IMG/VR virus record: IMGVR_UViG_3300009285_000028
Coordinates: 1-40,418 of that record
Strand: one strand, 5' to 3'
DNA length: 40,418 bases
Source: a virus
In this document: piece by piece, positions 12,580 through 38,357 of the stretch
Position numbering within the stretch: position 1 is the stretch's first letter
Layout of the letters: the number at the start of each line of letters is the position of its first letter
Program-made: the position numbers and the translations under genes
The notes under the pieces: model-generated
What the model was told of the DNA's origin: nothing
The model's input: the letters and a program-made list of their open reading frames with translations, nothing else
Database searches by the model: none

Positions 12580-12622
12580 CCGCGCAGATTCGTCGTCAGT
12601 CCCCCCAAGGAGATACCCAACA

Positions 12623-18246: not shown

Positions 18247-20133
18247 ATGCCCACCCGCACAGACCGACCCCTGCTCATCGACACCTCCGTGAAACGCCGT
18301 GGGCGCGAGGTGCAGGCGCGGCTGCGTAAGAGGTCGGGGACCAAGAACTTCCGCACCATGGACCTGGCTGAAGAGGTCGCCAAGCTCATGGAGCCGCCCA
18401 ACAGGTGGCCGAAGTACCTCATCGCCCAGTCCCTCGGCATCACCGAGCGCAGGGTGGCTCAGGCGCTGGCGTATCGGGCGAAGACGATGCACACCAAGCC
18501 GCTGTACGAGGACATCACCGACGAGGCGCGGGCGATGCTCGCGTGGTCGGTGGACGCCTTCGAGCGGTTCTTCATCACCTTCTCCGGGTACGACTCCTTG
18601 CCCAACCACGTCCGTCCCTGGATAGCGGCCTTCCTGGCACAGCGGAACCTCATCTTGAACGTGCCTCCCCGCCACGCGAAGTCCACCTACTTCATGGTCT
18701 GGATACCCATATGGCTCATCTGCCGGGACCGCAACGTGCAGTTGCTGCTCGTGTCCAAGACGCACGAGTTCGCGCAGAACTGGGCGCTGGAGATTGCGGC
18801 GAACCTCGAGCACAACGAGGGGCTCATCAAGGCGTACGGGGCCTTCAAGGCCGACAAGGAGGGCGACCAGAAGTGGAAGCCCAACTCGGGCACGTTCACC
18901 GTGCTCGGACGGACCAAGACCATCCGGGGCGCGCAGTTCACCGTCGAGTCTCGGGGCATGAACGGCCAGGTGCTCGGCCGTGAGGCGGACTTCATCATGG
19001 TGGACGACCCCACCGACCAGGAAGAGGCCGAATCCGAGACCTCGCGCCGACGCGAGCTGAAGCACCTCCAGGAGCAGGTGTTCACCCGCGCCGAGCCGCA
19101 GGCCGACAAACCCGGCGGACGCATCGCCGTGGTCGGTCAGAGGGTTCACCTGCTGGATGTGTACGGCACGCTCGCCAAGATGGAGTGGGAGATAGGTCCG
19201 AACAAGGGCGAGAAGCTCTGGCACGTCGAGAAGTACCCCGCCGTCTTGGACTGGGACTCCAAGCGGGTCCTGTGGCCGGAACGCCACTCGTGGGACGAGT
19301 TGATGCTCACCTACGCCCGTGTGGGCGGGCACGGGCCGTTCTCGACCCTGTTCCAGCAGGAGCCGCTGCCGGAGGGCTCGGCGCTTGTGACTCAAGCATG
19401 GGTCGAGGGTTGCCGCGACCACTCCCGCAACGCCTTCCAAGGGATGCGTGTGGACGACGCCGGGGCGCAGGTGCCGGTCGTCCGGGTGCTGTCGTTGGAC
19501 CCATCGCCGACGAAGTTCAACGGCATCGTCGTTGGGGACCTGTTCTACAACAAGGACCGCTTCGTGTTCGCCATGACCGAGGCTTACCGCCTCCAGGCGG
19601 GGCAGTACGGGGTCAAGGCCAAGGTGGACGAAATCATCAACCGGGCCAAGCCCGACTACTTCATCTTCGAGGAGTCCGGGTTCCTGCACTGGTTCCGAGA
19701 CGACCCGTGGTTCATGGAGCTGAAGGACCGCGTGAAGCTCGAGCTGCACCACACGGGCGCGAACAAGAACAGCATGGAGTACGGCGTGCAGTCCCTCGCC
19801 GGCGACTTCGAGTTCAAGAACCTCTCGTTCCCCTACGGCGACGACGAGGCGCGGCGCATGAGCGACCTGGTGTCAGGCGAAGCGCTCATCTACCCCTACG
19901 GCGAGACCACCGACATGCTGATGGCGCTGTGGTTCATCAAGTTCAACTACAAGCGCCTCTCTCCGGTGAGGTTCCTGCCCACCCGCGTCAAGGGGACCGA
20001 AGGCAGAGACACCACATGGAGTTGGTACAAGCAGTTGAAGGGCAAGAAGAACACACAGGAGGCGGCCTACCAGAAGTACAAGGCCGACAAGGCCAAGCGG
20101 CAGGCCGAGATGAGGAAGGTGGCAGTTGGCTGA
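18247..20133 (+). CDS. terL: Terminase large subunit with an N-terminal ~100-aa HTH-containing extension
   Basis: Walker A-like NVPPRHAKST, Walker B-like ADFIMVDDP and acidic nuclease-type blocks (VLSLDPS, FIFEESG). Followed by an overlapping portal-size gene. Confidence 0.85.
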   Translation: MPTRTDRPLLIDTSVKRRGREVQARLRKRSGTKNFRTMDLAEEVAKLMEPPNRWPKYLIAQSLGITERRVAQALAYRAKTMHTKPLYEDITDEARAMLAWSVDAFERFFITFSGYDSLPNHVRPWIAAFLAQRNLILNVPPRHAKSTYFMVWIPIWLICRDRNVQLLLVSKTHEFAQNWALEIAANLEHNEGLIKAYGAFKADKEGDQKWKPNSGTFTVLGRTKTIRGAQFTVESRGMNGQVLGREADFIMVDDPTDQEEAESETSRRRELKHLQEQVFTRAEPQADKPGGRIAVVGQRVHLLDVYGTLAKMEWEIGPNKGEKLWHVEKYPAVLDWDSKRVLWPERHSWDELMLTYARVGGHGPFSTLFQQEPLPEGSALVTQAWVEGCRDHSRNAFQGMRVDDAGAQVPVVRVLSLDPSPTKFNGIVVGDLFYNKDRFVFAMTEAYRLQAGQYGVKAKVDEIINRAKPDYFIFEESGFLHWFRDDPWFMELKDRVKLELHHTGANKNSMEYGVQSLAGDFEFKNLSFPYGDDEARRMSDLVSGEALIYPYGETTDMLMALWFIKFNYKRLSPVRFLPTRVKGTEGRDTTWSWYKQLKGKKNTQEAAYQKYKADKAKRQAEMRKVAVG

Positions 20134-21844
20134 GTCCAAGGCACTCAAGGTCTACAAGAACCGCGTGACCGAGCAGTACATCCTCGACCAGGTGCTCTAT
20201 CACTTCGACTCGGAGTCCTTCAGCGACCACAAGCGCCGCGTCGAGGATGGGGACCGCCTCTACAAGGGCGACCTGGCGGGGCTGTTCCCCGACGAACAGG
20301 CGCTTCCCGATACCCCGCTGGTGGAGAACAAGTTCAAGAACGCCATCCACGACTGCGCCCGCCTCGCAGCAGAGGGCCGGGGCCTGGTCAAAGCCATCCC
20401 CCGTGGAGACCGTGACCGCGACATGAAGGGTGCGCGCGTCGCCGAGGCCATCGACGAGGGCTACTGGACCGTCAATCGGATGCGTTACCGGGAGCGCAAG
20501 CTGTACCTGGACCTCATCGGCACCGGGATGATGGCGCTATCGGTGTTCTACAACGATGACTCGCCCTATCCGCAGATTCGCCACCTGGACCCGCGCTTCT
20601 GCTACCCGGATGTCGTCGATGGGCGGCTGAGCGACATGCTCTACGTGCAGACCATCAAGCGCCGTCAGGCCGCGCGGCTGTTCCCCGGCTTCGAGATAGA
20701 CGTTGACGGCGCGGACTCCTCCGACGTGATGCTCGTCGCCTACTACGACGACGAGGGGGTCTCCGAGGCGCTCACGTTCATCAACAACGACCGCCCCGAG
20801 CGGGCCATCATCACCAAGCAGTGGGCGCACGACCTCGGCGTGGTTCCCGTCGCGTTCGAGATGCTGGACACCTACGACGGGGCGTTCCACGGGCTGTTCG
20901 AGCAGCTCTCGGGGCCGCTCATGGTGCGCAACAAGATAGTGCGCTTCATGGTCGACTACATCGAGTCCATCGCGCACTCCCCGCTTGAAGCTCGGGGCAT
21001 CATCAACGCGGATACCCCGCCAGGGCCGGATACCGTATACCAGCACGACCTCACCGAAGAGAACACCCACATCGGCCGCGTTCCTCCCGCCGCCCCTGCC
21101 GGGTCACTCTTCGGGCTGCTCCAGTACATGGAGGGCCAGGAGGAGCGCGAGTCCATCCAGCCGCCTTCGCGCGTGGGCAATGTGTCGCAGTCCATCGCGT
21201 CGGGCAGCTTCGTGGACCGGACGCAGGGCCAGCTCACCTCGCTCATCAAGGAGTTGCAGGACAAGGTGGCCTCGCTCCGCGAACAGGCCAACCTCATCTG
21301 CAACAGGGTGGACGAGGTTCACCTGAACGTCGCCAAGCCGCTGCTGCGCCCCGTGTCTGGCCAGAAGATGTACACCCCGTCAAAGGACATCGACGGATGG
21401 TACCTGCACGAGGTCAAGTTCGGCGCAGGGGCCGGGCTGGACCGCCTGAACGCCGACGGGCGGGTGCTGAACCACCTGGCCGCGCGGCTCATCTCACGCG
21501 AAGAGGGCAGGGCCGAAATCGACTACCTCGACGACTCGGCATCCTCCCAGGACAAGGTGGACCGCGAGGCGCTGGCCGATGCCATCTTGCAGCGGTTCGT
21601 CCGCGACCCGGCCGTACCCATGTCCTCCATCGCCCGGACGTGGCTGCTGATGAAGAAGGACGGCAAGAGCCTGGACGAGGCGCTGGACGAGACCGTGCCC
21701 GAGATGCTCGCAGCCGAGGCCGCTGCGGCACCCCAGCCCGGCCCCGAGCAGATGGGCGGGACCCAGGGCGGGGCGTCCGAACTCGGGCAGGTCAATCTGC
21801 CGCTCCCGCCGCTCCAGCAGCTATTCGTCCGACAGGGGAGCTAA
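20126..21844 (+). CDS. Portal protein, 572 aa
   Basis: TTG start with GAGGAAGG upstream; overlaps the terL stop by 8 nt. Size and position are typical; no motif-level proof. Confidence 0.75.
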   Translation: MAESKALKVYKNRVTEQYILDQVLYHFDSESFSDHKRRVEDGDRLYKGDLAGLFPDEQALPDTPLVENKFKNAIHDCARLAAEGRGLVKAIPRGDRDRDMKGARVAEAIDEGYWTVNRMRYRERKLYLDLIGTGMMALSVFYNDDSPYPQIRHLDPRFCYPDVVDGRLSDMLYVQTIKRRQAARLFPGFEIDVDGADSSDVMLVAYYDDEGVSEALTFINNDRPERAIITKQWAHDLGVVPVAFEMLDTYDGAFHGLFEQLSGPLMVRNKIVRFMVDYIESIAHSPLEARGIINADTPPGPDTVYQHDLTEENTHIGRVPPAAPAGSLFGLLQYMEGQEERESIQPPSRVGNVSQSIASGSFVDRTQGQLTSLIKELQDKVASLREQANLICNRVDEVHLNVAKPLLRPVSGQKMYTPSKDIDGWYLHEVKFGAGAGLDRLNADGRVLNHLAARLISREEGRAEIDYLDDSASSQDKVDREALADAILQRFVRDPAVPMSSIARTWLLMKKDGKSLDEALDETVPEMLAAEAAAAPQPGPEQMGGTQGGASELGQVNLPLPPLQQLFVRQGS

Positions 21845-21847
21845 GAG

Positions 21848-22246
21848 ATGGCCGAGTTCAGGCGAGGACAGGGACCGAACGCTCTCCCGCAAGGTGGTGC
21901 AGCGCAGGTCAACGCAAGCACCCCGGCCGCAGAAGACCTCGCGGGTACACCGCTGGAGCCGGGCGGCGACATCCCGGTCGTGTATGCGCGCGGGGAAGCC
22001 GACCCGGTATCCAACGATGACAACGGGCTCAGTGAAGAGGCGCAGGTGCTCCTGGCCCCACCCAATCCCGGCTTCGCCCCTTCGCTGATGTCCGCCCAGG
22101 GGGCCGGGCGCGTTCCTCGCTACGTGGTGCGCCACCTGCCCATCCTGATGGCTGCGGCGCGTGACCCCGAGGCCCCCGTGACCATCCGTGCCCTCTACAA
22201 CGCGGTGGTCCGCCGCCTCGAGGCCGAGATGCGACAGGGGCTCTAG
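21848..22246 (+). CDS. Hypothetical head-module protein, 132 aa
   Basis: ATG 3 nt after the portal stop. Confidence 0.6.
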   Translation: MAEFRRGQGPNALPQGGAAQVNASTPAAEDLAGTPLEPGGDIPVVYARGEADPVSNDDNGLSEEAQVLLAPPNPGFAPSLMSAQGAGRVPRYVVRHLPILMAAARDPEAPVTIRALYNAVVRRLEAEMRQGL

Positions 22247-25200
22247 ATGCCCATCCTGTTCGAGGGTCCGGTCGAACCGGAGGCACCGGAGGAGCCGAAG
22301 GCCCCTCGTCCGACGGACGTGCCCGCCCCCCGCAGGCGAGGTGAGTTCGCCCCTGCTGTAGCGACCCATACCGCCTCAGCCGCCGAACTGCTGGCGAACG
22401 CCTCCGCCATCCAGGCTCAGCGTGTGGCGTCGGTGTTCGAGGGTGTGAACGATACGGCCCTGTATCAAGTGCCGGACACGCTTGTCTGGACCGGGGTGCA
22501 GGAGAACAGCACCGTGCTCACAGCATCGGTCAACGACGCGGCATCGTTCTTCGCTCGCATCTACGGTGGCGACAACCTCGCGGCCTTCATGACGGCGGAT
22601 GTCTTCGGCGACCCGGTGCAGACCGAGCGCACGATGGCGACGTTGGCCTACCTCCGGGGGTTCGCAACGACCGCCTACGCGCGGGATGGAACACCCATCT
22701 TCCAGGCAGGCGGCTCGGGGTCGCAGGAACGCGGCATGGAACTCCTGCGTCAGGTGCTCGCCAACAGCGGCTCCACCGCCGGACTCACCGAGGCGGAGCG
22801 GGCGCAGGTTGGCACGCTGGCGCAGACGCTCTACACGAACCTACAGACCCTCCCGGACACCGGCACCTCGCTCGCGTTCAAGACGGCGGTTGCGGTGGGA
22901 GCGACCCAGGATGTCACCCTCGCGCTGTCAGCCGATGAGGTGGCCACCCTGGAGCGTTACGTCCAGGCGGAACTCGGTCAACTCGGGGGGCTGCGGCAGA
23001 CCGGGGAGACTCCCACCCTCGCATCGGTGGGCATCGAGCAGGTGCGCCAACTGAACGATGGCGTCATCGTGCTCGACCGGGACTTCGCCAAGGCGAACCC
23101 CGCTGAGGCGTACGCGGTCGAGACATGGCTCCACCAGAACTACCCGGAGCTGGAGATTCAGTACGACCGTCAGGGCGTGGTCGGCTCGCTGCTCGACAAG
23201 TTCGGGATGGGAGTGGACTACCTCACCGCCCCCATCGCGGCCGGGGCCATGCAACTGAAGGAGTTCGGGGAACAACTCTCCAACAGCCCGGAGGACCGGG
23301 CCAGGATGCTCGCACGGGCAGACGAACTCGAGCAACAACTCATGCGTGGCGAGGTCCCCGAAGCGGACGTGGAACGCACGTTGAGCGACATCGCTTTGCT
23401 GCGTGACATAGGAACGGTAGAGGTGGGCTGGCAGCAGTACCAGGACGACGTGTTTCGGGGCACCAATGCGCGCATAGCCGGCTTCGGGTTCGCCGACACC
23501 ATCATGCGCTCGTCCGGCATGATGCCCGGAGACCCAGGGTACGGAGCCACCTACGCCGTCGTGGGCCTACTGTCCAACATCATCGCCGACCCCTTCAACA
23601 TCGGTCTCCTCGGTCTTACGGGCGCGCGTAGCGCACGGCTCATCGCGACGTTGGAGAAGGGTGTCGTCCCCGCCGACGTGGGCAGGGGCATCGTGCGCGC
23701 GACCGCCTATCGAGCACTCGCGAAAACCCCCGAGGAGATGCTCGTCACGCGCCCCATGATGCAAGCGGCCGACCGCCTCTACGAGATGCGCACGGCGCTC
23801 GGACCCGATGAGTTCGCCGGGATGCTCGCAGGCTTCTATCACGATGAGCGCGGCCTGGGCGGCGGAGCGGAGGCTGCGCACCTGCTGTCCCAGGCGACGA
23901 GTTCGGAGGACATGGCGATAGCGATGGTCTCCACCCAGTTCCCGATAGCGGGTGGGGGGTTGCCCATCGAGCCGCTCATGGAGCGCATGAACGAAGCGAC
24001 CAGACTGCTCGACCGGGAGGCCGAACTTCCGGGGCTCATCAATGCATCACAAGACCCGGCACTCGTCCCCGGCCTGCAAGCCGAACTCGATGTCCTTCGG
24101 TCGCAGCACACGGACCTCATCGCGCAACGCGGCCTGTACTCGTCCATCGTCGAAGGTACGGAGTGGGTACGCCCCGTCAGGCAGGTATTCAGCTCGCGCC
24201 AGATACGCAGGTTGGAGCGTCTGACCGGCGAGCGCCTCGATGCGCGGATGCGAGCGTTCGAGGCTGCGACCGCATCTGTCGAGGGCTTGCCTGCGGACGT
24301 GCTCCGTGCCGGGCCGGATGCCATCGCCGCGCACATCGCGGCCAATCCCAACGTGGAAGCGACCACCGCTATCTTGATGCGGCGTGCTCGCAGGGCGTTC
24401 ACCCCCTCGGGTGCCGGTGAGGTGCTGACGTTCCCCCACACCTCGGACCAAGCGGCGGCAGTAGCCAACCTGTTCAAGAAGGGGCGGCTCCTGGCCGACC
24501 ACAGGGAGGAATCGTTCGCCCGCATCCTCGGACTCGGCCGCCGGTTCGGACTGTCGGATTCCCGCGTCGAGGAACTGGTGCGTCCCTGGGTTGCAGGCGA
24601 ACTCACCGGCCCCTCCGCGAGCTATCGGTGGTGGACGAAGACCTGGGAGAGCTTCGTAGACGAGTCCCCGCTCCTTGGGGCGGCGGGCAAGGAGAAGCTC
24701 GCCAAGATGTGGGACACGCCGCTCGAGGGTCGCCCCACGGGGCTCATCGAGACGCGCGGCGCATCGGGGTTCGCCGAGTACGAGCCGGTCTGGTACAAGA
24801 GCGAGGTTGAGCCCGTCACCGGCCTGCTCGAGCGCAAGCCCCTGCCCGACGCCGAGGCGTTCATGTTCCAGACCTGGACCGCCCCGAGCGACGAGGCTAT
24901 CACCGCGTACATCTCGCACGCGCAGCGCACCGTGAACGAATGGCGGAAGACTGGCGGCTGGGGCAAGCGGTCAATCTCGCTCGCGCACCTGCGGCTGGCG
25001 CAACTGTGGAGCGGCTGGAACCACCTGTGGCGCACCGGGGCGCTCATCTTCCGTCCCATCGCGTGGCCCGCCCGCGTCATGGGCGAAGAGATGGTGCGGA
25101 TAGCGACCTTCGGCTACTCCTCGCTCGTGAACAACCCCATCGAATGGTTGCTGTCCACCAAGATGGGGACGCGGCTGTTCAAGAGCACCGACTTCGCGCT

Positions 25201-28200
25201 CATGGGCGAGTCACCAACGCACGCGCTCGGCGGGCTCATGGGCATCATGGAGAACAACCCGAACCTGCGCCTCGCGCAGCTCGGGACTCAGGAGGTCTCT
25301 ATCGCCAGCGGCCCCGCCTTCTGGCGTTCCTACGCGGACACGCTGTCCCGGCAGTACGCCTCGCCCTCGGTGCGTGTTCAGTTGCGATACATGGACCACC
25401 CCGCTTCCGCGCTTGCCGCCATCGAGGCGAGCGACGACGGGGCCTGGTGGCTCGCGCACGTCGCCGAGTCGGACTTCACCCCGCTGGAGGCCATCGCTCG
25501 CAAGCAGGAGCAGTTGCGCCAGCTCCTCGGCTCGGGCGAGGACGCGGACCTAGTTCGCACCGCACTCACTCGTGGTGCAGTCTCGGTAGACGGCGAGGTC
25601 ATCGAGGTCGGCTCTGATGGGTTCGCGGCGTTCCTGGAGAAGCTGGCGAACGAGGGGCGCTGGACGCCGGGCATCTCCACGCTCCCGCGCTCCGCCGGGG
25701 ACTACCTGCCCGTATCGCGCATGAGCGCGGCGACCGAAGTCACGGGGCGTGCGTTCTCGTTCTTCGCCACCGCGCCGGATAACGCGCTGGCCCGCAGCCC
25801 GCTCTGGCGGCAGATGGCCGCACGGGAGTTCCGCGACCTCGTACGGCGCGGCTACAGCAAGGAACGTGCGCTCGAGATGGCCCGCGCCTGGGCTGCCAGG
25901 GGCACCCGCGACACACTGTTCACCATCGGGGCGCGCACCCCCGGTGAGGTGTGGTTGCGCAACGTCAACCCGTTCTTCCCCGCCTACCGCGAGTTGGCCG
26001 ACACCTGGCTCATCCGCGCCGGTCAGCGGCTCGGCAACAGTTCGTGGGCGCTTGGCGTGGGCAAGATGGGGCGGCGTGTCGATGTCTGGATGGACTTCTT
26101 CTCCAACATGGGTCTCATCCGCCGGGATGAGCGGGGCAAGATGTATGTGCCCATCCCCGGCCTGGGCGGCATCATCTCCGCGTTCACCGGAGCCAACGTC
26201 GAGTTCGATTCGAGGGCTCCGGCCGACACGTTCGCGGGCGTGCTGCCGACCCCCATCGGGGTCATGGACAAGGACGAGGAAGGCAACCCGCTGCCCTGGT
26301 ACAAGCGCCTCCAGGGGCTTCTGCCGACGCTCGGCGGTCCCGCTACGTTCGTCCTCGGTGCCATGAACGACCTCTTCGGCGGGGAACTCGACGCCGCCGA
26401 GAACTGGCTGACGCTCTACGGCACGGACGCATCGCAGGGTCCCACGTCCATCGACCGCGCACTCGAGGCGTTCGGGTTCGTCGCTCCGTGGATGACCGCC
26501 ACGACCCGCGAGATGCACGAGGCAACGCGGACCTGGGCCGTGGTCGATGGTATGCGCATCGCCGCCAGCGAGACACCCGCCCCGAGCTACGTGGAGTTCG
26601 ATGCCGACGGCGATGGGGAACTCACCACCGACGAGATGCAAGCCTACGCGGAAGCCGACCGCCAGTGGAAGCTGGACCTGCTGAACCGTGGAGAGCGGTA
26701 CGCGCAGCGGTTCTACCTGCTCCGCTCCGTCATGAGCGCCGTCTTGCCGTTCTCCGTCGCCTCGTCCGATGAGGCCAAGCAGCAGATGAGCGCCGTCTGG
26801 ACGATGCTGAACGCCATCCCCGACAAGGCGGGGGGAGGCGAGTTCAAGTCCGCCCTGCTCGACGCCATCCTGGCCGAGTACCCCCAGTTGGGCGCGTACA
26901 TGACCGGCAAGACCCAGGACTTCCGACCGGGCATCGTGAAGCCCGAGGAGAACCTGGAGGAGTGGATGCAGGCGGTCAAGAACGGGGAGGTCAAGGTCCG
27001 CAACGCTACGGACTGGGCCGTGTTCGCCTCGGGCATGAACAGCTACTCCATCTTCCAGTCGCGCATCGACGCCATCTTCGAGGAGGCCGGCCCGGTCGCG
27101 GCCGATTGGCTGGTCAACTTTGCCGGCAAGGAAGAGGTCGCCCAGGAGAAGGCGAAGTGGCAGGTGTTCCTCGACGCCTCCGAGGTACGGGAGAACTGGC
27201 TGCTGCCCGACCAGACCAAGGGCTTCGCCACGATGCTCGATGACTACTTCGACCTCAAAGCCATCCACGAGGGGGAGGCCACCGACCTCACGCTGGAGCA
27301 GCAGCGGCTCCTTGACCTCACCGGGCTGATGCGGGAGTTCTCGCTGTCGCTCACGCCCAACGAGCCGAGCACGGATGACTACTACAAGCTCCGGGACCAG
27401 GCGTACGCGGCGCTCGGCCCCCCCAAGGGCGAGATAGGCAAGGGCGTGGACTGGTGGTTCTCCACGGTCAACACCCCCTACTACGACGAGCTGCACGCGC
27501 TGGCCGACACGCTCGATGCCACGGAGCCGAGGAACCAGGGTCCCATCTACGCCCAGATGAACGCGGTGCGCAACGCCTACTACCACGGCTGGACCGACCC
27601 CAAGCATCCCGAGTGGGGCGAGTTCGTCTCACCGGAGGAGTATGGCTTCATCGCGCTCACGCCCGAGGAGCGGACGCATCAGGTCGCGGCGTGGGCCAAC
27701 CTGCCGGCCGGGTTCCTCTCGCAGTTCCAGCGGGAGCAGGTCGGCTACGACATCCCCGAGGACAAGCAGGACAAGGCATCGGACTTCGTGGCGATGGTGG
27801 ACCGCGCCAACCGCAAGTTCGAGAAGTACGTGGTGCAGCACGACCTGTCCTACGCCTCGACGGCCATCAAGGATGCGCGTGCGAAGCTCGACGCGGCGTT
27901 CGCCGAAATCGCAGACGAGCGCGGGCTGAGCGCCTTCTGGAAGCAGGCCAACATGGCCGAATACCAGCGGGTGGACCTGGCGCTGAACCTCTCGGAGACA
28001 TCGGCCTCGTGGAAGCACGTTACGCGCCTCGCCACCTCCCTGCGGAACTACATCGAGTCGCAGGATTACGTCCCCGGCGGCTCATCTGCGCTCGCCGAGC
28101 AGGGGCGGACGTGGTTCGTCAACATGGTCACGAAGGTGCGCGGGAACGACGCGGGGTTCGATGACCTGATGAGCGACCTTCAGGTGGCACTGGGAGACAA

Positions 28201-28291
28201 GGGCTCGCCCCTTGCCGACCAAGAGATAGTTGAGACGCTGTTCTTCGACGTATGGAGCACATCAAACTCGTTCTACCTGGACAGGAGGTAA
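22247..28291 (+). CDS. Giant virion-module protein, 2014 aa (internal/ejection protein candidate) with an EF-hand-like loop
   Basis: Uninterrupted 6045-nt ORF with high GC3 throughout. DADGDGELTTDE is encoded at 26600-26635. Confidence 0.85.
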   Translation: MPILFEGPVEPEAPEEPKAPRPTDVPAPRRRGEFAPAVATHTASAAELLANASAIQAQRVASVFEGVNDTALYQVPDTLVWTGVQENSTVLTASVNDAASFFARIYGGDNLAAFMTADVFGDPVQTERTMATLAYLRGFATTAYARDGTPIFQAGGSGSQERGMELLRQVLANSGSTAGLTEAERAQVGTLAQTLYTNLQTLPDTGTSLAFKTAVAVGATQDVTLALSADEVATLERYVQAELGQLGGLRQTGETPTLASVGIEQVRQLNDGVIVLDRDFAKANPAEAYAVETWLHQNYPELEIQYDRQGVVGSLLDKFGMGVDYLTAPIAAGAMQLKEFGEQLSNSPEDRARMLARADELEQQLMRGEVPEADVERTLSDIALLRDIGTVEVGWQQYQDDVFRGTNARIAGFGFADTIMRSSGMMPGDPGYGATYAVVGLLSNIIADPFNIGLLGLTGARSARLIATLEKGVVPADVGRGIVRATAYRALAKTPEEMLVTRPMMQAADRLYEMRTALGPDEFAGMLAGFYHDERGLGGGAEAAHLLSQATSSEDMAIAMVSTQFPIAGGGLPIEPLMERMNEATRLLDREAELPGLINASQDPALVPGLQAELDVLRSQHTDLIAQRGLYSSIVEGTEWVRPVRQVFSSRQIRRLERLTGERLDARMRAFEAATASVEGLPADVLRAGPDAIAAHIAANPNVEATTAILMRRARRAFTPSGAGEVLTFPHTSDQAAAVANLFKKGRLLADHREESFARILGLGRRFGLSDSRVEELVRPWVAGELTGPSASYRWWTKTWESFVDESPLLGAAGKEKLAKMWDTPLEGRPTGLIETRGASGFAEYEPVWYKSEVEPVTGLLERKPLPDAEAFMFQTWTAPSDEAITAYISHAQRTVNEWRKTGGWGKRSISLAHLRLAQLWSGWNHLWRTGALIFRPIAWPARVMGEEMVRIATFGYSSLVNNPIEWLLSTKMGTRLFKSTDFALMGESPTHALGGLMGIMENNPNLRLAQLGTQEVSIASGPAFWRSYADTLSRQYASPSVRVQLRYMDHPASALAAIEASDDGAWWLAHVAESDFTPLEAIARKQEQLRQLLGSGEDADLVRTALTRGAVSVDGEVIEVGSDGFAAFLEKLANEGRWTPGISTLPRSAGDYLPVSRMSAATEVTGRAFSFFATAPDNALARSPLWRQMAAREFRDLVRRGYSKERALEMARAWAARGTRDTLFTIGARTPGEVWLRNVNPFFPAYRELADTWLIRAGQRLGNSSWALGVGKMGRRVDVWMDFFSNMGLIRRDERGKMYVPIPGLGGIISAFTGANVEFDSRAPADTFAGVLPTPIGVMDKDEEGNPLPWYKRLQGLLPTLGGPATFVLGAMNDLFGGELDAAENWLTLYGTDASQGPTSIDRALEAFGFVAPWMTATTREMHEATRTWAVVDGMRIAASETPAPSYVEFDADGDGELTTDEMQAYAEADRQWKLDLLNRGERYAQRFYLLRSVMSAVLPFSVASSDEAKQQMSAVWTMLNAIPDKAGGGEFKSALLDAILAEYPQLGAYMTGKTQDFRPGIVKPEENLEEWMQAVKNGEVKVRNATDWAVFASGMNSYSIFQSRIDAIFEEAGPVAADWLVNFAGKEEVAQEKAKWQVFLDASEVRENWLLPDQTKGFATMLDDYFDLKAIHEGEATDLTLEQQRLLDLTGLMREFSLSLTPNEPSTDDYYKLRDQAYAALGPPKGEIGKGVDWWFSTVNTPYYDELHALADTLDATEPRNQGPIYAQMNAVRNAYYHGWTDPKHPEWGEFVSPEEYGFIALTPEERTHQVAAWANLPAGFLSQFQREQVGYDIPEDKQDKASDFVAMVDRANRKFEKYVVQHDLSYASTAIKDARAKLDAAFAEIADERGLSAFWKQANMAEYQRVDLALNLSETSASWKHVTRLATSLRNYIESQDYVPGGSSALAEQGRTWFVNMVTKVRGNDAGFDDLMSDLQVALGDKGSPLADQEIVETLFFDVWSTSNSFYLDRR

Positions 28292-28294
28292 GAC

Positions 28295-29311
28295 ATGGCC
28301 ACGAACACCACCGGCCCCGATGAGCCGTCGCGCGCCGGAGAGGATGCCCCCGGTGGGCGCGCTGCCCCGCCCGGCTTCCACTACAACGCGGCGGGCAAGC
28401 TCGTGCCCAACAAGGGCCGTCGTCTGAACGTCGGCAAGGAGGGCTACGAAGGGCCGGGGAGGACGGACGAGAATCAGCTTGGCAAGGACGTTGCGGGCCA
28501 GGACATCCCCCAGGCGTTCATCAACAAGCTCGAGGAGGCGGGTCTCTACATCGACCCGGAGACGAACTCGCTCACGGTCCTTGACCCAAGCATCATGGGG
28601 GACCTCCAAGCCTTCGTCGAGAGCGTTTCGGGGAAGAAGCTCACGGAAGAGGAGCGCAAGAAGCTGACGCCCAAGCAGAAGGCCATCCTGGAGAAGCTTG
28701 AGGCCAAGGTCATGAAGACCTACCAGAAGAACGCGGGGGGAGGGGGCCTAACCAAGGAGAACCTGGCCCTCATGCAGGTCGCCTACAACCGCTTCGGCCT
28801 AACGAACAACGCCTACAACACGGCCCTCGTCGCCAAGACGAAGGACGGCGGGAGCGTGAACCTGACGACGGGGCAGACCGATTCGGGTTCATACCTCTCA
28901 GATGAGGAACTGGCGCTGCTACAGATGCGCAGTGGGTACGACGCGGACGTGGCCTTCCAGCAGTTCGTCGAGGCGAACACATGGAACCTGCCCGGTGGGG
29001 GCACGTACTCCTCCTACATCGCGCAAGACCAGGAGCGGTGGGCGGAATGGGTGACGAAGAACCGGGAGATTAGGATGGCCGTGCCCGAGTACACAGGGCG
29101 TACCTCGGAGACGACCGCTACCCCGGAGGCGGGCCCGAGCTTCGCCGGCGGGTTCGACTTCGACACGGTGGGCACGCCGGAACTCCAGACCGCATCCACC
29201 TCGCTCCAGCAGATGCTCGCCGCACGCCAAGCCCGCGAGACCGCCACCCGGACAGACACCGGCAACTCCTTCTTCGAGGATGAGTTGCTGTTCCCGCAGG
29301 ACGAGGGGTAA
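28295..29311 (+). CDS. Head-module protein, 338 aa
   Basis: ATG 3 nt after the giant ORF stop; non-repetitive. Confidence 0.7.
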   Translation: MATNTTGPDEPSRAGEDAPGGRAAPPGFHYNAAGKLVPNKGRRLNVGKEGYEGPGRTDENQLGKDVAGQDIPQAFINKLEEAGLYIDPETNSLTVLDPSIMGDLQAFVESVSGKKLTEEERKKLTPKQKAILEKLEAKVMKTYQKNAGGGGLTKENLALMQVAYNRFGLTNNAYNTALVAKTKDGGSVNLTTGQTDSGSYLSDEELALLQMRSGYDADVAFQQFVEANTWNLPGGGTYSSYIAQDQERWAEWVTKNREIRMAVPEYTGRTSETTATPEAGPSFAGGFDFDTVGTPELQTASTSLQQMLAARQARETATRTDTGNSFFEDELLFPQDEG

Positions 29312-29314
29312 GCC

Positions 29315-30334
29315 ATGCCTATCGACTGGGGGTCGGTCTTCGGTGGAGGGGGAGGCGACACGGGGTCAACCACGTCCACCGGGACCTCGACCAGCACCGC
29401 CCCATCAGGGCCGTCCGAGGCCGAGCAGCGTGCGCTGGAGGCGATGTTCTATGGGTTCCGGGAGACCCTGCGGCGATGGGGGCTCCGCGCCTCGAAGAAC
29501 CTCCTGAACCTCATCGAGCGTGCCGTCAGGGGGCGCTGGTCCACGAGCCAGTTCCTCGACCACTTGCGGCAGACACCCGAGTACCGCGAGAGGTTCGTGG
29601 GGCTTCAGTGGAAGACCGGCATGACCGAGGGCCAGTACCTCGCGGAGTACGCGCAGTTCAAGGCGCGTGCCCAGGACGTCGGGATGCAGCTCAGCCGGCA
29701 GGACTTCGCCAAGGTGCTGAAGCGCGGCGTGAGCTTCGAGGAGTTCAGCGCCCGCGTCGATGCGCTGGGGGCCATCGAGCAGTACGGCCCCATGTGGAAG
29801 CAGTTCGAGTTCGAGCTGCAACAGGTCGGCGAGTTGGGCGAGAACGAGCGGCTGACCAAGAAGGGCATCGCCGACCTCATCATGGGGGTCGGTTCGAAGA
29901 AGTGGGAGACCATCTGGCAGCGCGCCTACATCACGACCGCGCTCGAGAAGGTGGCCGGCATCGATGTCGTCGAGAAGGCCAAGGGCGAAGCCGCGTCACC
30001 GGACGGCTACGAACTGAGCCGCAACAACCTGCTCTCCATCATCAAGTCGGTTGAGGCGCTGTCGCCTGGCTTCGACATCGAGTCGCTGAAGGGGATGGAC
30101 TTCGCCGAGATTGGCAAGAACATCCGGTCCTTCGACCTGCGCTACCTCCGTCGCTACGGGCTCGAGGTCAAGGACATCCTGTCCATGCAGCTCGGCGGGC
30201 CGAACGCGGCCAAGCTTGCAGCCAGGGCCGAGCGGGTCAAGGCCACGCAGGAGGCGTTCTTCGAGCCCCGTGCGCAGGAGGACTTCCTCGCCGCTGCCGC
30301 TCAGCAAGCGGAGGAGTTGCCCCAGAGCCGCTAA
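29315..30334 (+). CDS. Head-module protein, 339 aa, with a Gly/Ser/Thr-rich N-terminus
   Basis: ATG 3 nt after the upstream stop. Confidence 0.7.
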   Translation: MPIDWGSVFGGGGGDTGSTTSTGTSTSTAPSGPSEAEQRALEAMFYGFRETLRRWGLRASKNLLNLIERAVRGRWSTSQFLDHLRQTPEYRERFVGLQWKTGMTEGQYLAEYAQFKARAQDVGMQLSRQDFAKVLKRGVSFEEFSARVDALGAIEQYGPMWKQFEFELQQVGELGENERLTKKGIADLIMGVGSKKWETIWQRAYITTALEKVAGIDVVEKAKGEAASPDGYELSRNNLLSIIKSVEALSPGFDIESLKGMDFAEIGKNIRSFDLRYLRRYGLEVKDILSMQLGGPNAAKLAARAERVKATQEAFFEPRAQEDFLAAAAQQAEELPQSR

Positions 30335-30340
30335 CGCACT

Positions 30341-30355
30341 GCGCCCTTGACAGGG
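30341..30355 (+). promoter_or_regulatory. Recurrent motif variant E: GCGCCCTTGACAGGG
   Basis: 14 of 15 identical to copy C (A to T change creates TTGACA). Lies in the 142-nt gap upstream of scaffold and capsid. Confidence 0.5.
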
Positions 30356-30476
30356 ATTCCATGCTGTAGACGCGCAAGGAACCCTTGCCTGGGCCTCCGT
30401 GGCCGCAGTGCCCTCCTTGCAGAACCGGCGTGTATCCACACGCCCCGGCCCTGCGGCAATCAGGAGGTCAACTTCC

Positions 30477-31001
30477 ATGTCAGACGACATGAGCACTTCC
30501 TTCCTCGATGACGACGAGGACGAGGAATCCACTACCGAGAACAAGAGTGCTTCAGCGTTCGCCCAGATGCGCAAGGAACTGAAGGCTTCAAAGAAGGAGC
30601 TTGAGGAACTGCGCGTGTTCAAGGTGGAGCAGGAGAAGGTCCAGCGAGTCACCTCCGTCGCGGAGGCGTTCAAGGGCGTTGGCCTGAATCCGAAGCACGC
30701 GAAGTTCTATCCCGCCGATTCCGAACCGACGCCCGAGGCCATCAAGGAGTGGGCGCTCGCGGAGGACTTCATCAAGGCGGAGGAGGGCGAGGCCGAAGCG
30801 CCGCCGCCCCCAGAAGAGGCTGGGTTCACGCCAACCGTCGTGTCGGGGGGAGCCACCCCCGGAGCCAAGGTCTACACCGCCGAGGAGTTCGACCAGCTCA
30901 TGCTGACCGACCCCACCAAGGCGATGCAGGTCTACAAGGCCGGCCGGGTGCAGAAGGAGCAGGCCCCCGGAGGTTCCGTCTTCGCGGGGCGTGACCGCTA
31001 A
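30477..31001 (+). CDS. Scaffolding protein, 174 aa
   Basis: SD CAGGAGG. Acidic N-terminus DDDEDEE and a charged helical KE-rich body. Immediately upstream of the capsid gene. Confidence 0.7.
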   Translation: MSDDMSTSFLDDDEDEESTTENKSASAFAQMRKELKASKKELEELRVFKVEQEKVQRVTSVAEAFKGVGLNPKHAKFYPADSEPTPEAIKEWALAEDFIKAEEGEAEAPPPPEEAGFTPTVVSGGATPGAKVYTAEEFDQLMLTDPTKAMQVYKAGRVQKEQAPGGSVFAGRDR

Positions 31002-31018
31002 GACGAAAGGCACGACCT

Positions 31019-31861
31019 ATGGCTGCAACAGGCAAAGCTGCCCTCGATGACTCCGTATTCGCGGAACTCGTCGAGTCACGCATGGTGCGGGAGTTGCGTC
31101 CCGCCCTGACGAGCCGCCAGTTCGTTCGCTTCGGCGCGAAGGGGCCGTCAACCGTCAGGTCGTTCCCGCTGTGGGGCGACCCCGGCTCGGCTGCTGCTCC
31201 GACGGATGACCTGTCCGAAATCTCCAGCACGGCGCTGTCCGACACGCAGGTGTCGGCGACCGCCGCCGAGGTTGGTCTTCGGGTGGATGTCACGGACCTC
31301 ATCCGTGAGACGCACCCCTCCAACCTCTATGCAGAGGTGGGTGGCATCGTCGCTCGTTCGGTCGCGGAGAAGTGGGAAACGGACCTCGCGGCCCTGATGG
31401 ACGACTTCGACGGCATCACGACCGCCGCATCGACGCTGACCCCAAGCGACCACCTGGCCGCCGTGTCGGCGCTCGAGGTGCGGGACATCCCTGCTCCGTA
31501 CGTCGCCTACTACGACCCGAAGCAGACCGGCGAACTCCGTCAGGAAATCGCATCCACCACTGCCGTCTGGCAGGCCGGGAAGAACGACGACCTCGTTCGC
31601 CCGTTCGGTGACTCCGGTTTCTTCGGTACGTACATGGGCGTTCCCATCTGGCAGACCTCGCTCGTCGTCACGACCTCCGGTCTGGTCGGCGGCGCGGTCT
31701 TCAACTCCGAGGACACCATCGGTGGCTACATCGTGTGGGACTCCCGGCTGGAGACCCAGCGGGACGCCTCATACCGCTCGCTGGAGTTCGTCGGAACGAT
31801 GGCGTACGGCCTGTGCGAAATCAGCGACACCCGTGGCCAGACCGTCAAGTCGGCCGCGTAA
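31019..31861 (+). CDS. Major capsid protein, 280 aa
   Basis: Position after the scaffold; size and composition typical of HK97-fold coat proteins. No search was possible. Confidence 0.7.
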   Translation: MAATGKAALDDSVFAELVESRMVRELRPALTSRQFVRFGAKGPSTVRSFPLWGDPGSAAAPTDDLSEISSTALSDTQVSATAAEVGLRVDVTDLIRETHPSNLYAEVGGIVARSVAEKWETDLAALMDDFDGITTAASTLTPSDHLAAVSALEVRDIPAPYVAYYDPKQTGELRQEIASTTAVWQAGKNDDLVRPFGDSGFFGTYMGVPIWQTSLVVTTSGLVGGAVFNSEDTIGGYIVWDSRLETQRDASYRSLEFVGTMAYGLCEISDTRGQTVKSAA

Positions 31862-31885: not shown

Positions 31886-32179
31886 ATGTTGTGCCAGGAG
31901 CCGGGGTGTTCGAACCTCGGTGAGTCTAAGGGCAGTGGCATTCGCCACACTAGGTGTCATCGGCATCGGGGGCGCAATGTGACACGTGCCCTCCGCCGAA
32001 AGCCGTACCTAATGTTTCGTGGTTCCGTGTGCGAGCGGTGCGACTTTCAGGCTGAGGACCCGTGCCAGTTGGACGTGGACCACAAAGATGGGAACCACGC
32101 CAACAACAATCCCGACAACCTGGCAACCCTGTGTGCGAATTGCCATCGTCTCAAGACACGCCTGGAACGCATCGCCTGA
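31886..32179 (+). CDS. HNH endonuclease, 97 aa (free-standing, homing-type candidate)
   Basis: DVDHKDGNHANNNPDNLATLCANCH. Slightly lower G+C by hand count (~59%). Confidence 0.85.
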   Translation: MLCQEPGCSNLGESKGSGIRHTRCHRHRGRNVTRALRRKPYLMFRGSVCERCDFQAEDPCQLDVDHKDGNHANNNPDNLATLCANCHRLKTRLERIA

Positions 32180-35872: not shown

Positions 35873-36619
35873 GTGGGGGCTACGGTCGTTCTGCGCAAGT
35901 GTCCGGAGCATGAGTCCTGCCAGCTCGAGCGGCGGGATGACGGCCCCTGGCGGCACACGCCCGCCTCCCGCCCCCTCGTGGAACGCCTCACCCAACGACC
36001 CGAATCTCAAGAGGCCCTTGAGCACCGCCTGGCCGGTGAGGTAAGCGCGGCGAACAAGCTCCGCACCCGGCTCTCGGAGCAGGCGGAGGGGGTCACGCAG
36101 CGCCTCGGCCGGCTGGACGACGTGGTGGCCCTGCTCCCCAAGGTGGAGGCCCGCCATCGGGAGGCCGGGGCCGTGGGGGACCGCCTGGCCGACCTTCAGG
36201 ACGAGACCGAGCTGCTTGCCCTGCGCTTGCGTCATGCGCTCGACCGTGTAGATGCGGTCGAAACGGAACTCAAGCACCGTGTCTCACAGGTCGAACGGGC
36301 GCAGGACCGCAACGTGGAGGTCATCGCCGGGGCCGAGCAGCGAGCCGTCGGTCTCGAGGAGCGCCTGCTGCGGGCAGACGGGTTCCTGCTCCGCGCGGAT
36401 GACCTCGTGGGCAAGCTCAGCCGCCTCGACGACGTGCTCGCGGCCGTGGGGACCAGCGAGAGCCTGCTCCTCGATGAACTAGCTGCGCTTCGCCGTCGTG
36501 TCGATGAGGTCGCGCACGATACCGCGCACGAACGCGCCGAACGCCTACAGGCCACGGCCAAGAGCGTCCGCACGGACCAGATGCTTGCCAAGCGCATCGA
36601 GGAGGTGGGCCGTGGCTGA
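35873..36619 (+). CDS. Long coiled-coil protein, 248 aa (tail/fibre-associated)
   Basis: GTG 35873. Leu/Arg/Glu/Ala heptad-rich throughout. Confidence 0.55.
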   Translation: MGATVVLRKCPEHESCQLERRDDGPWRHTPASRPLVERLTQRPESQEALEHRLAGEVSAANKLRTRLSEQAEGVTQRLGRLDDVVALLPKVEARHREAGAVGDRLADLQDETELLALRLRHALDRVDAVETELKHRVSQVERAQDRNVEVIAGAEQRAVGLEERLLRADGFLLRADDLVGKLSRLDDVLAAVGTSESLLLDELAALRRRVDEVAHDTAHERAERLQATAKSVRTDQMLAKRIEEVGRG

Positions 36620-38357
36620 CCTGCCCTCCAATCAGAGCACGACCTTCACGGCCGGCACGGGCATCCAACTCACCTTCACCGAGACCGAGGGGGCCTACTG
36701 GGACATCGCCGTAGAGTCCACGGCTGGGGGTGCCCCCTCGAACGCCGACTATCTCGTGGGCACGGCCAACGGGTCGCTGTCTGCGGAGATAGTCGTCGGC
36801 TCCACACCCGGCGGCGAACTTGGGGGAACCTGGGCCTCGCCGACAGTGGACACAACCCACGCAGGCGGCACCCACGCAGCGGCGGGCAGCGACCATATCG
36901 CCGATGCCTCTGCTGCCCACGCAGCCTCGGCTGTCTCCGTCGATTCGACGACGCTCGTTGGAACCGGGACGGACCAGCAGGCGGTGGACGAGGAGTTCGA
37001 CAACGCCATCGTCACCGCCCAGGCTGCGGCCGACAACCACATCGCGGACGCAAGTGCCGCCCATGCCGCCTCGGCAGTCTCGGCGGACTCGACCACGTTG
37101 GTCGGTGTCGGCACGGACGTTCAAGCGGTGCTCGAAGAACTCGACAACGGCATCGCCGACCATCTCGCGGACGCTACCGACGCCCACGATGCCTCTGCCA
37201 TCTCCATCCTCGACGCCGCCACCCAGTACACCGCGACTGACGTAGAGGCTGCGTTGGCCGAGGTCCTGGACGCCGAGCAGGCGCACGAAGCCGATGCGGT
37301 CGGTGCCCACGCAGCGACCGCTATCGCCAACACTCCGGCCGGTTCGGTTGCCGCTACGACAGTTCAGGCCGCCATCGACGAACTCGCTACCGACTACGCC
37401 TCCGCCGACTCGACGCACGCGGGCGCAGCGGACCCGCACGCCGACTACCTCAAGGAGTCGGTCTTCACGACCAAGGGCGACATCGTGGCGGCTACCGCTG
37501 CCTCGACGCCCGCCCGCCTTGGGGTCGGCACGGACGGCCAGGTTCTGACCGCCGATGCTGCATCTGCGGGAGGGGTGAAGTGGGCTGCCGGTGGCGGGGG
37601 TGGGGCGGTTGCCACGGATGTCATCTGGGATGCGAAGGGGGACCTTGCCGCAGGAACCGGGGCCGACACGGCTACCAAGCTCACCGTCGGAGCCGACGAC
37701 ACCATCCTCATGGCCGATGCTGCGGTCGCCAACGGCTTGAAGTGGGTTGCCTCCGCCACGCCCTCCACACAGGCGTTCGGTGATGCTGCTGCCGTCGGGA
37801 CGGGTGACACCTTCACGCGCGGCGACCACAAGCACGCGATGATGGCGGACCCGACAACGGCCCACGTCGCTGCAGGGGACCCGCACACTGGCTACGTCTT
37901 GGAGACATGGGAAATCATGGCTCGCAAGGCGGCCGACCAGACGTGGACCTCCGATGCCATCGTGGATGATGTCACCACACTAGGCTTCGCCATCGGCTCG
38001 AACGATGTCTGGGTGTTCGACCTATTGCTGTGGGTTGCCGGTGCGACGACGGGGGACATCCAGATAGGTTTCACCGGACCCGCTGGTGTCACCATCAAGT
38101 GGGGCGCATCAGTCGGAGCTGCTCTCGCGGCAGCCAACACCACCGCATCGTCCGTCTCCTGGGGACAGGAGACCACGGGCACACGGGGATTCGCTACCGC
38201 TGGGGTCGCTACATTCGGGCTTCTGCGCATCGCGGGCATCGCCCGCAACGGTGCGACGGCGGGGACCATCCAGTTGCAAGCGGCACAGGTGGTCTCGGAC
38301 GCCACCGCGACCACCATCCAGGCCGATAGCGTCATCGTCGCCAAGAGGATTGCCTGA
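36612..38357 (+). CDS. Tail fibre / receptor-binding protein, 581 aa
   Basis: GTG 36612 overlaps the upstream stop. Four tandem ~41-48-aa repeats H(I/L)AD..(A/D)AH(A/D)ASA(V/I)S....(T)(D/T)VQA.L.EL, typical of phage fibre repeats. Confidence 0.8.
   Translation: MADLPSNQSTTFTAGTGIQLTFTETEGAYWDIAVESTAGGAPSNADYLVGTANGSLSAEIVVGSTPGGELGGTWASPTVDTTHAGGTHAAAGSDHIADASAAHAASAVSVDSTTLVGTGTDQQAVDEEFDNAIVTAQAAADNHIADASAAHAASAVSADSTTLVGVGTDVQAVLEELDNGIADHLADATDAHDASAISILDAATQYTATDVEAALAEVLDAEQAHEADAVGAHAATAIANTPAGSVAATTVQAAIDELATDYASADSTHAGAADPHADYLKESVFTTKGDIVAATAASTPARLGVGTDGQVLTADAASAGGVKWAAGGGGGAVATDVIWDAKGDLAAGTGADTATKLTVGADDTILMADAAVANGLKWVASATPSTQAFGDAAAVGTGDTFTRGDHKHAMMADPTTAHVAAGDPHTGYVLETWEIMARKAADQTWTSDAIVDDVTTLGFAIGSNDVWVFDLLLWVAGATTGDIQIGFTGPAGVTIKWGASVGAALAAANTTASSVSWGQETTGTRGFATAGVATFGLLRIAGIARNGATAGTIQLQAAQVVSDATATTIQADSVIVAKRIA
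36891..37410 (+). repeat. Intragenic tandem repeats of the tail fibre gene (units start about 36891, 37035, 37158, 37278)
   Basis: Seen at both nucleotide and protein level. Confidence 0.8.

Follow-up and report, generated by a model that had tools for sequence, protein, structure and literature searches.

A giant gene between the portal and capsid genes

This analysis concerns a single very large gene in a 40,418-nucleotide (nt) stretch of viral DNA, IMG/VR virus record IMGVR_UViG_3300009285_000028 (positions 1 to 40,418; hereafter the window). The open reading frame (ORF) lies on the plus strand at 22247-28291, starts with ATG, and continues without interruption for 2014 amino acids (aa); we refer to its product as the giant. 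The final 77 nt of the window (40342-40418) are identical to its first 77 nt (1-77), and the window thus represents a circularly closed genome of 40,341 nt, 14.98% of which is taken up by the giant ORF. The GC content at the three codon positions of the ORF (0.66/0.48/0.87) is the typical pattern of coding DNA at a genome GC of 65.8%. Stop codons occur at a frequency of approximately 0.024 per random codon at this composition, so by simple arithmetic an open frame of 2014 codons would arise by chance with a probability of approximately e^-48. In addition, full-length homologues were found. We conclude that the giant ORF is a real gene. An earlier interpretation of the window from its sequence alone (the sequence-only reading) had described a single uninterrupted ORF at these positions making up about 15% of the genome, and every one of these observational particulars was borne out.

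The giant has a calculated mass of 221 kDa and a pI of 4.9, contains no cysteine, and is predicted to be almost wholly alpha-helical. A hydropathy scan gave no transmembrane-grade segment (maximum Kyte-Doolittle value of 1.57 in a 19-residue window), and searches of Pfam and PHROGs gave no above-threshold match.

The gene is part of a compact head module, read from the plus strand from the portal gene through the capsid gene. The large terminase gene (TerL, 18247-20133; phrog_38, 4.6e-45) precedes the portal gene (20126-21844), the product of which has a weak match to Pfam P22_portal and contains 3 Cys. This portal is 23% identical to annotated portals of Streptomyces Beephvirinae and 45-61% identical to its equivalents in L004 and L013, two related loci described below. 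The next gene, orf132 (21848-22246; 132 aa, no Cys), lies directly upstream of the giant gene in all cases, and its stop codon abuts the giant ATG (junction TAGATG). Downstream of the giant gene, orf338 (28295-29311; 338 aa, Cys-free) begins 3 nt past the giant stop codon, with its Shine-Dalgarno sequence located within the final codons of the giant gene, and is followed by orf339 (29315-30334; 339 aa, no Cys). We considered the possibility that orf338 and orf339 are paralogues of each other and rejected it. A 200-aa ORF (30399-31001; phrog_7813, no Cys) is the putative scaffold gene on the basis of its position, and the gene for the major capsid protein (MCP) comes next (31019-31861; Phage_capsid_4, 4e-6; phrog_544). 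The spacers are 3 nt between the portal gene and orf132, 0 between orf132 and the giant gene, 3 nt between the giant gene and orf338, and 3 nt between orf338 and orf339. The sequence-only reading had placed the portal gene and a 132-aa ORF upstream of the giant gene and two ORFs of about 340 aa, then scaffold and capsid genes, downstream of it; our gene calls agree.

The giant belongs to a large protein family

The family to which the giant belongs is visible only by exhaustive HMMER searching; a word-indexed protein search recovered 2 homologues only, even with a profile. Using a profile of giant aa 248-1415 and a cutoff of E <= 1e-3, HMMER recovered 249 cluster representatives, 117 at E <= 1e-10, nearly all of 1,600-3,500 aa. 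In an all-against-all BLAST comparison, 122 of the recovered representatives were linked over at least 60% of their length. The sequence-only reading had considered the giant several-fold oversized for its slot. This view does not hold: the members of the family are mostly 1,600-3,500 aa, and they occupy the same slot in actinophages of cluster BF.

Different parts of the giant are shared with different numbers of the 117 distant full-length members. The N-terminal region (22247-24646, plus strand; aa 1 to ~800), which has a Pro-rich start, is variable and is common to about 15 of them. An intermediate conserved block (24674-25126, plus strand; aa ~810-960) is common to about 50. The C-terminal backbone (25739-28156, plus strand; aa ~1165-1970), which defines the superfamily, is common to 95-110. 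The most conserved part of the backbone is a core block at its start (25739-26176, plus strand; aa ~1165-1310), with the pattern PD.AL.RSPL.RQ ... FTIGA.T ... PFFPAYREL..TW, and this is the best-match region for most representatives. No Pfam model, the LPD models included, matches the backbone of approximately 800 aa. In an alignment of 114 members, 27 backbone positions are conserved in at least 80% of the proteins: 8 Pro, 7 Gly, 4 Ala, 5 aromatic residues, 1 Leu, R1183, and E1249. Conservation of this type looks structural rather than catalytic.

The family extends to cultured phages. A hidden Markov model (HMM) of the core, made from 128 members, matched the giants of the Beephvirinae phages Immanuel3, Manuel, RosePharie, and Vorvolakos with 27-33 bits (E ~1e-10 to 1e-11, calculated for these 4 targets), at the equivalent position of the 1648-aa proteins. 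The same core block had been flagged at non-significant levels by pairwise BLASTP (E = 0.75) and by hhalign of a 5-sequence profile against four Beephvirinae giants (E = 0.15). In all 29 deposited genomes of Streptomyces cluster-BF phages, the giant is annotated as a hypothetical protein. The Beephvirinae giants (e.g., Immanuel3 gp09, 1648 aa, and Manuel gp10), which are themselves uncharacterized, resemble the window giant in occupying the same slot (portal, small ORFs, giant, mid-size Cys-free proteins, scaffold-position ORF, MCP), in having no Cys, and in where the core block lies along the protein. They differ from it in that the homology is remote (none by tblastn, as well as the shallow hhalign result), in being approximately 370 aa shorter, and in having no EF-hand loop.

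We define the superfamily as the window giant, the proteins P0001-P0152, and Beephvirinae gp09. The window giant has all of its features, namely the C-terminal backbone with the core block, a length of at least ~1,600 aa, the slot after the portal gene, and almost no Cys. Judged from these sequences, the family is a large, previously undescribed and unnamed set of unannotated, Cys-free giant head-module proteins of actinobacterial podophages. Comparison of the giant with 50,697 deposited phages by megablast and tblastn gave no match, and the same was true of the distant member P0036. A tblastn match between giant aa 746-840 and positions 5588-5881 of L006, from an uncultured Gemmatimonas metagenome-assembled genome (contig CAZFSA010000062.1), has 29% identity over 95 aa and an E-value of 3e-5 that is relative to the candidate stretches only; it may be a chance match or a very distant relative outside Actinomycetota. 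In our view, the family is of more interest than the metal-binding loop described below, and the structural intuition of the sequence-only reading was sound.

Gene order is conserved and the giant diverges rapidly

Every genome examined has the same gene order: terminase, portal, small ORF(s), giant, one to four mid-size ORFs, a scaffold-position ORF, and capsid. This order is kept in the close relatives L001, L002, and L004, in cultured Beephvirinae, and in the distant L013 (giant of 3235 aa) and L014 (giant of 1669 aa), which are contigs of 36-38 kb. By tblastn, these genomes share homologues of TerL, portal, orf339, MCP, orf228, orf164, and orf677. Beephvirinae, which make up actinophage cluster BF, are podoviruses by electron microscopy (PMC9753666; PMC11536984).

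The genes of the module differ in how well they are conserved. The giant is 37-43% identical in L001, L002, and L004, where MCP is 74-77% identical, and 24% identical in L013, where MCP is 45% identical. Its rate of divergence is thus approximately double that of the capsid and portal proteins of the same genomes, which suggests host-facing selection. orf132 is 51-57% identical in L001, L002, and L004, in the same position, and the 200-aa scaffold-position ORF is also conserved in these three. orf339 is conserved throughout the clade (51-57% identity in L001, L002, and L004, and 27% in L013), and orf338 is weakly conserved in L001 and L002.

Relatives carry fused enzymatic domains

We scanned 40 diverse family members against Pfam for fused domains. 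P0010 contains ART-PolyVal (58.5 bits; aa 764-833), and P0058 contains both ART-PolyVal (32.2 bits; gathering score 31.2) and ParB_N. ParB_N was found in two further members, and NlpC/P60, Amidase_5, and GNAT in single members; the NlpC/P60 domain of P0044 is at its extreme C-terminus (aa 2267-2388). Iterative searching identified ParB_N-like EGxHR modules in about 30 of 150 members; in each case they precede the backbone, and some members have multiple copies. P0079 and P0087 each have three or four dispersed tandem modules of this type in the N-terminal half. The N-terminal region of the window giant has no recognizable module, unlike those relatives that have ART-PolyVal, ParB_N, or GNAT there.

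Lytic enzymes are also encoded next to the giant gene in some phages. In Immanuel3, the two proteins encoded after gp10, the ORF downstream of the giant gene, have N-terminal NlpC/P60 (3.6e-30) and SLT (2.5e-5) domains, respectively, and a separate endolysin gene adjoins the terminase gene. The presence of NlpC/P60 and SLT proteins beside the giant, together with a separate endolysin, is a hallmark of virion-borne entry enzymes. The window differs from Beephvirinae in this respect, as its orf338 and orf339 are without these domains.

ART-PolyVal, ParB_N, GNAT, and peptidoglycan-hydrolase domains typify the polyvalent proteins (PMC5512222), which in phages with a portal-terminase system are inferred to be packaged in the head and to accompany the DNA on injection (Iyer et al. 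2017, PMC5512222). Like the giants, polyvalent proteins are very large and are encoded beside portal-terminase and other virion late genes, and the relatives of the window giant combine ART-PolyVal, ParB_N, GNAT, and peptidoglycan-hydrolase modules. Polyvalent proteins are characterized by several disparate activities, and such combinations are found in P0058, P0010, P0044, and other relatives. The window giant differs in that it has no recognizable enzymatic domain. By its sequence, it is homologous to polyvalent proteins but cannot be demonstrated to be one itself.

The giant and its neighbors are depleted of cysteine

Cysteine is absent from 120 of 127 giants. Based on the Cys content of the other proteins of the window (mean of 0.98%) or of its structural module (0.57%), the window giant would be expected to contain 11-20 Cys, and it contains none (P = 1e-5 to 3e-9). 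The absence extends to the neighboring genes. orf132, the giant, orf338, orf339, and the scaffold-position ORF (21848-31001; 3,023 aa) form a Cys-free cassette, and the terminase, portal, and tail-region proteins of the window contain Cys. The Cys-free cassette pattern extends to L004, L013, L014, and Immanuel3; in Immanuel3, the NlpC/P60 protein accounts for the only Cys of the cassette. The NlpC/P60 family uses a catalytic Cys, and this residue may be the catalytic one.

Phage proteins known to be ejected have a similar composition. T7 gp15 and gp16 and N4 gp50 are experimentally established ejected proteins; they have 0 Cys in 747, 1318, and 3500 residues, respectively, and gp66 of phi14:2 has 2 in 2180. 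Ejected phage proteins may be recognizable, cheaply and without alignment, by the near-total absence of Cys across a gene cassette.

An EF-hand-type loop in a variable linker

The giant contains a 12-residue EF-hand-type loop, DADGDGELTTDE, at aa 1452-1463 (26600-26635, plus strand). It lies in a variable linker between two conserved helices (26561-26689, plus strand; aa ~1439-1481). The sequence-only reading had pointed out that this segment fits the canonical EF-hand Ca2+ loop; the position it gave was exact, and the loop matches PROSITE PS00018 at aa 1452. There is only one such loop in the giant, and it is therefore unpaired. In composition-preserving shuffles of the giant, a PS00018 match occurs by chance in 0.54%, a match to a stricter pattern in 0.1%, and DxDGD in 3.4%. 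In a relaxed scan, EF-hand_1 (aa 1450-1467) is the best Pfam match of the whole giant, with 14 bits (gathering score 25.4). An AlphaFold 2 (AF2) model that is otherwise poor predicts a helix-loop-helix at this site with moderate confidence (predicted local distance difference test, pLDDT, ~73-75), and in the DSSP assignment of this model helices at aa 1448-1451 and 1461-1499 flank the loop.

The loop is present in a small part of the family. When 114 members were aligned on the flanking conserved helices, the length of the linker from anchor to anchor ranged from 45 to 79 aa and an EF-hand-type loop was found in 5. We compared five close homologues, full or partial: P0001, P0002, the IMG/VR loci L003 and L004, and a metagenome fragment with 77% identity (assembly ERZ1292625, contig labeled Hain-H41). 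The sequence at the loop site is DADGDGELTTDE in the window, DEDGDGRLSEEE in P0002, and DEDGNGELSVEE in L003; P0001 and L004 have no loop, and a shorter Pro-rich linker takes its place. The remaining two loop-bearing members of the alignment are P0004 (DKDKDGYLTGDE) and P0006 (DTNNDGDLSADE). In all five loops, the proteins of which are about 40% identical overall, ligands occupy positions 1, 3, 5, and 12, position 6 is Gly, and position 8 is hydrophobic. DxDGD is found in two of the five; L003 has DEDGN, P0004 has DKDKD, and P0006 has DTNND. A rough neighbor-joining tree suggests that the loop was gained once, at the base of the subclade to which the window belongs, and lost once.

The loop is a genuine clade-specific insert in a variable linker; it is selectively maintained and probably binds Ca2+. 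It cannot, given its distribution in the alignment, be the catalytic center of the family. The sequence-only reading named the loop as the one signature it could recognize in the protein and proposed its conservation in homologues as a check. The loop turned out to be optional, missing from two of the five close homologues and from 109 of the 114 aligned members. That reading also favored an EF-hand over a polymerase, and here the greater constancy of the ligand positions compared to DxDGD is on its side.

Single EF-hand-like loops of the DxDxDG class are found in bacterial proteins. For example, the E. coli lytic transglycosylase Slt35/MltB has a single EF-hand with a stabilizing role. The giant's loop resembles those of this class in its ligands at positions 1, 3, 5, and 12, Gly 6, and hydrophobic residue 8, and in being helix-flanked, unpaired, and set in a larger non-EF protein. 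It differs from them in its sub-threshold Pfam EF-hand score, its restriction to one subclade of a family, and in that its Ca2+ site is a predicted one.

A second acidic loop, DKDEEGNPLPW (aa 1341-1351; nt 26267-26299), is nearly invariant in the five close homologues, with D1343, G1346, N1347, L1349, and P1350 the near-invariant residues. It does not fit the EF-hand consensus, as it has Pro at position 8 and Tyr at position 12.

The giant as a probable ejected protein

We infer that the giant is packaged in the virion and ejected. Specifically, we give a probability of roughly 60% to its being a head-internal protein of a short-tailed actinobacterial phage that is ejected with the DNA and is of the polyvalent-protein kind. 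The giant would be made late, translationally coupled to the portal-proximal orf132, orf338, and orf339, and built into the procapsid together with their products. The cassette between the portal and scaffold genes would then encode the internal ejected proteins of a podophage clade, with the giant as the chief one. At infection, the giant would be expelled via the portal and tail channel, with or ahead of the DNA. The C-terminal backbone of approximately 800 aa could serve as a structural chassis for packaging and/or translocation and may help to bridge the thick envelope of the host, and the fast-evolving N-terminal ~1,100 aa could be a host-facing cargo part, which in relatives would comprise ADP-ribosyltransferase, ParB-type nuclease/NTPase, acetyltransferase, or peptidoglycan-hydrolase modules. 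The total absence of Cys would fit an extended, disulfide-free passage, as for T7 gp15 and gp16 and the N4 virion RNA polymerase. The loop would probably bind Ca2+ and stabilize or tune a region of the backbone; it would be non-catalytic and dispensable for the core function of the family.

Characterized systems offer partial parallels. The T7 gp14-gp15-gp16 set likewise comes from a podovirus, is encoded by a multi-gene cassette, and consists of alpha-helical internal virion proteins, and T7 gp16 carries an SLT domain, as do Immanuel3 gp12 and some family members. The T7 proteins differ in that they have no similarity to the giant (hhalign E = 0.31-0.46; an empty PDB search), their genes follow the tail genes rather than lying between portal and scaffold genes, and the largest has 1318 aa. 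N4 gp50 (3500 aa) and the crAss-like gp66 (2180 aa) are giant proteins with few or no Cys that are packaged and injected, and the DFDID metal loop of gp66 superficially resembles DADGD of the giant. However, no homology between these two and the giant was detected, the loop of the giant is unconserved and, in the AF2 model, does not lie in a beta-barrel, and the giant has no conserved catalytic residues. For N4 gp50, the bit scores of the core HMM were negative, phmmer gave no matches, and hhalign gave E = 0.37. Comparisons by hhalign gave no relationship between the family and HTVC026P gp30, the HTVC026P tape-measure protein (TMP), phi14:2 gp67, or T7 gp13. The sequence-only reading had assigned the gene to the slot of MuF/gp7-like or ejected internal proteins. 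The head-module slot was correct; the MuF part was not, as there is no Pfam match to Phage_Mu_F in the giant or in 45 scanned family members, and the portal-adjacent slot is all that the giant has in common with MuF/SPP1 gp7.

Several points weigh against an ejected protein. There is no direct evidence for virion residence or ejection of any member, and no proteomics was found for the 29 members from cultured phages. No homology of the family to characterized ejected proteins was detected (T7 gp13-16, N4 gp50, phi14:2 gp66 and gp67; hhalign E >= 0.26), and searches of PDB sequences with family profiles were empty. The window giant has no recognizable effector or lytic domain. AF2 models of tiles of the giant were poor (pLDDT of 38 and 42, from 3-sequence alignments) and nearly all alpha-helical, and a Foldseek search of one tile model against the PDB gave nothing at E < 0.5. 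The podovirus morphology of the window phage is deduced from distant relatives and the absence of a tape measure. Depletion of Cys does not single out ejected proteins, as none is present in the scaffold-position ORF or in the MCPs of Immanuel3 and L004, and the window MCP has 1. Lastly, the EF-hand_1 score of the loop is sub-threshold and the loop is unpaired. Separately, a phmmer match of aa 1157-1236 to Rep40/68 of adeno-associated virus among PDB sequences (E = 0.026) was judged to be due to chance, and family profiles failed to reproduce it.

The explanation that competes best with ejection is that the giant is a structural component that stays with the virion, such as a portal-associated core or plug, a DNA-organizing body in the capsid interior, or a tail knob or needle. 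Its position in the head module, the synteny, and the structural type of conservation are equally compatible with a retained or an ejected protein. However, the ART, ParB_N, and GNAT modules of relatives, which have intracellular targets, and their peptidoglycan hydrolases make little sense inside a capsid, and the rate at which the giant diverges relative to MCP and portal suggests host-facing selection. We therefore consider a retained component unlikely.

The giant might instead be a late protein for host takeover or anti-defense that is not part of the virion and acts in the producing cell or is released at lysis. In principle, the producing cell could be where the fused ART, ParB, and GNAT domains act, and no proteomic data place the giant in virions. 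However, its position in the head-assembly block is strictly conserved and translationally coupled across very divergent genomes, its depletion of Cys is common to known ejected proteins, and the peptidoglycan-hydrolase fusions and neighbors point to entry from outside. We regard this explanation as improbable, well below that of a retained virion component.

That the giant serves a long-tailed phage as a tape-measure-like or tail-length protein is less probable still. The giant is large and alpha-helical and is the product of the biggest gene of the genome, and a tape measure is annotated in HTVC026P, which is among the nearest deposited relatives of the capsid. Against this, the giant gene lies between the portal and scaffold/capsid genes, not after the genes for the tail tube and chaperones, homologous giants occur in podoviruses verified by electron microscopy, and hhalign against the HTVC026P TMP gave E = 0.9. 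The sequence-only reading had likewise denied that this is a tape-measure context.

Finally, the giant can be dismissed as a virion-packaged two-barrel (double-psi-beta-barrel, DPBB) RNA polymerase (RNAP) of the crAss-like gp66 or P23-45 TMP-RNAP type with DADGD as its catalytic metal loop. The sequence-only reading had raised a DPBB polymerase on the fit of DADGD to DxDGD, a size of ~2000 aa, and its observation, which we confirm for every large ORF of the window, that the genome has no other recognizable polymerase. Giant virion RNAPs of the DPBB type do exist (bioRxiv 10.1101/2020.03.07.982082; bioRxiv 10.1101/2022.12.01.518664). The rarity of the loop in the family and of DxDGD among the five loops effectively refutes this alternative: P0001 and L004 have no loop, and L003, P0004, and P0006 have loops without DxDGD. 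Furthermore, the loop site is a variable linker modeled as helix-loop-helix, the sole acidic residue conserved throughout the family is E1249, hhalign of the family against phi14:2 gp66 (which carries DFDID at residue 1361) gave E = 0.3, family profiles found nothing among all PDB sequences, DxDGD turns up by chance in 3.4% of shuffled sequences, and a WhiB-type regulator encoded in the window suggests that the host RNAP is used. A tempting false lead is thereby removed: the giant is not a hidden virion RNAP.

A more specific and tentative idea, which we hold to be somewhat less probable than not, is that Cys-free giants are modular delivery chassis, a class that would be previously unrecognized in actinobacterial podophages. 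The C-terminal ~800 aa would package and thread the protein, and the N-terminal half would be an exchangeable bay for anti-defense and entry effectors, such that the unannotated N-terminal ~1,100 aa of the window giant would contain new effector domains. The loop could be a Ca2+ switch that senses the change from millimolar Ca2+ outside to sub-micromolar Ca2+ inside the cell and triggers a conformational change after ejection. How short-tailed phages pass their DNA through the thick actinobacterial envelope, and what is co-injected, are poorly understood. In these phages, about 15% of the genome is devoted to the family, which occurs in cultivable Streptomyces phages and includes members with known anti-host enzymes. 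The N-terminal halves of the giants are thus a reservoir of possible new anti-defense domains.

Other features of the genome

The window capsid is 30-35% identical to the capsids of small Pelagibacter phages. These phages have a sizeable uncharacterized ORF between the portal and scaffold genes, which in HTVC026P (L008) is at 11402-13228 and encodes 608 aa; by hhalign this protein has no similarity to the giant (E = 0.26).

A 97-aa HNH endonuclease with 8 Cys (31886-32179; Pfam HNH, 1.7e-5) is encoded within the structural module, directly after the capsid gene, and a second HNH/NinG-like protein is encoded at 11310-12203. The WhiB-like transcription factor (12658-13455; Pfam Whib, 6e-12) has 265 aa, with an unusually long N-terminal extension, and supports an actinobacterial host. 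The window also encodes an MT-A70 DNA methyltransferase (9683-10438) and a phrog_284 exonuclease (5008-6135). The WhiB-type regulator, exonuclease, MT-A70 methyltransferase, and HNH nucleases fit a small actinophage that relies on host enzymes.

No tape-measure-like helical ORF was found in the window, the large tail-region ORFs of which are fibre-like or beta-rich; tblastn searches of phages with orf677 and orf619 were uninformative. The structural module spans the ends of the sequence, as the beta-rich orf677 (150-2183) is homologous to a 649-aa ORF among the post-capsid genes of L013. The fibre-like orf619 (36498-38357) has three or four internal repeats of the form H[IL]ADA[ST][AD]AH[AD]ASA[VI]S..., each followed by TTLVG.GTD.QAV.EE.DN, and a beta-rich C-terminus, and looks like a tail fibre or receptor-binding protein. 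The true start of orf619 probably lies downstream of the annotated one, as the first ~40 aa from the annotated start are rich in Arg and overlap another frame.

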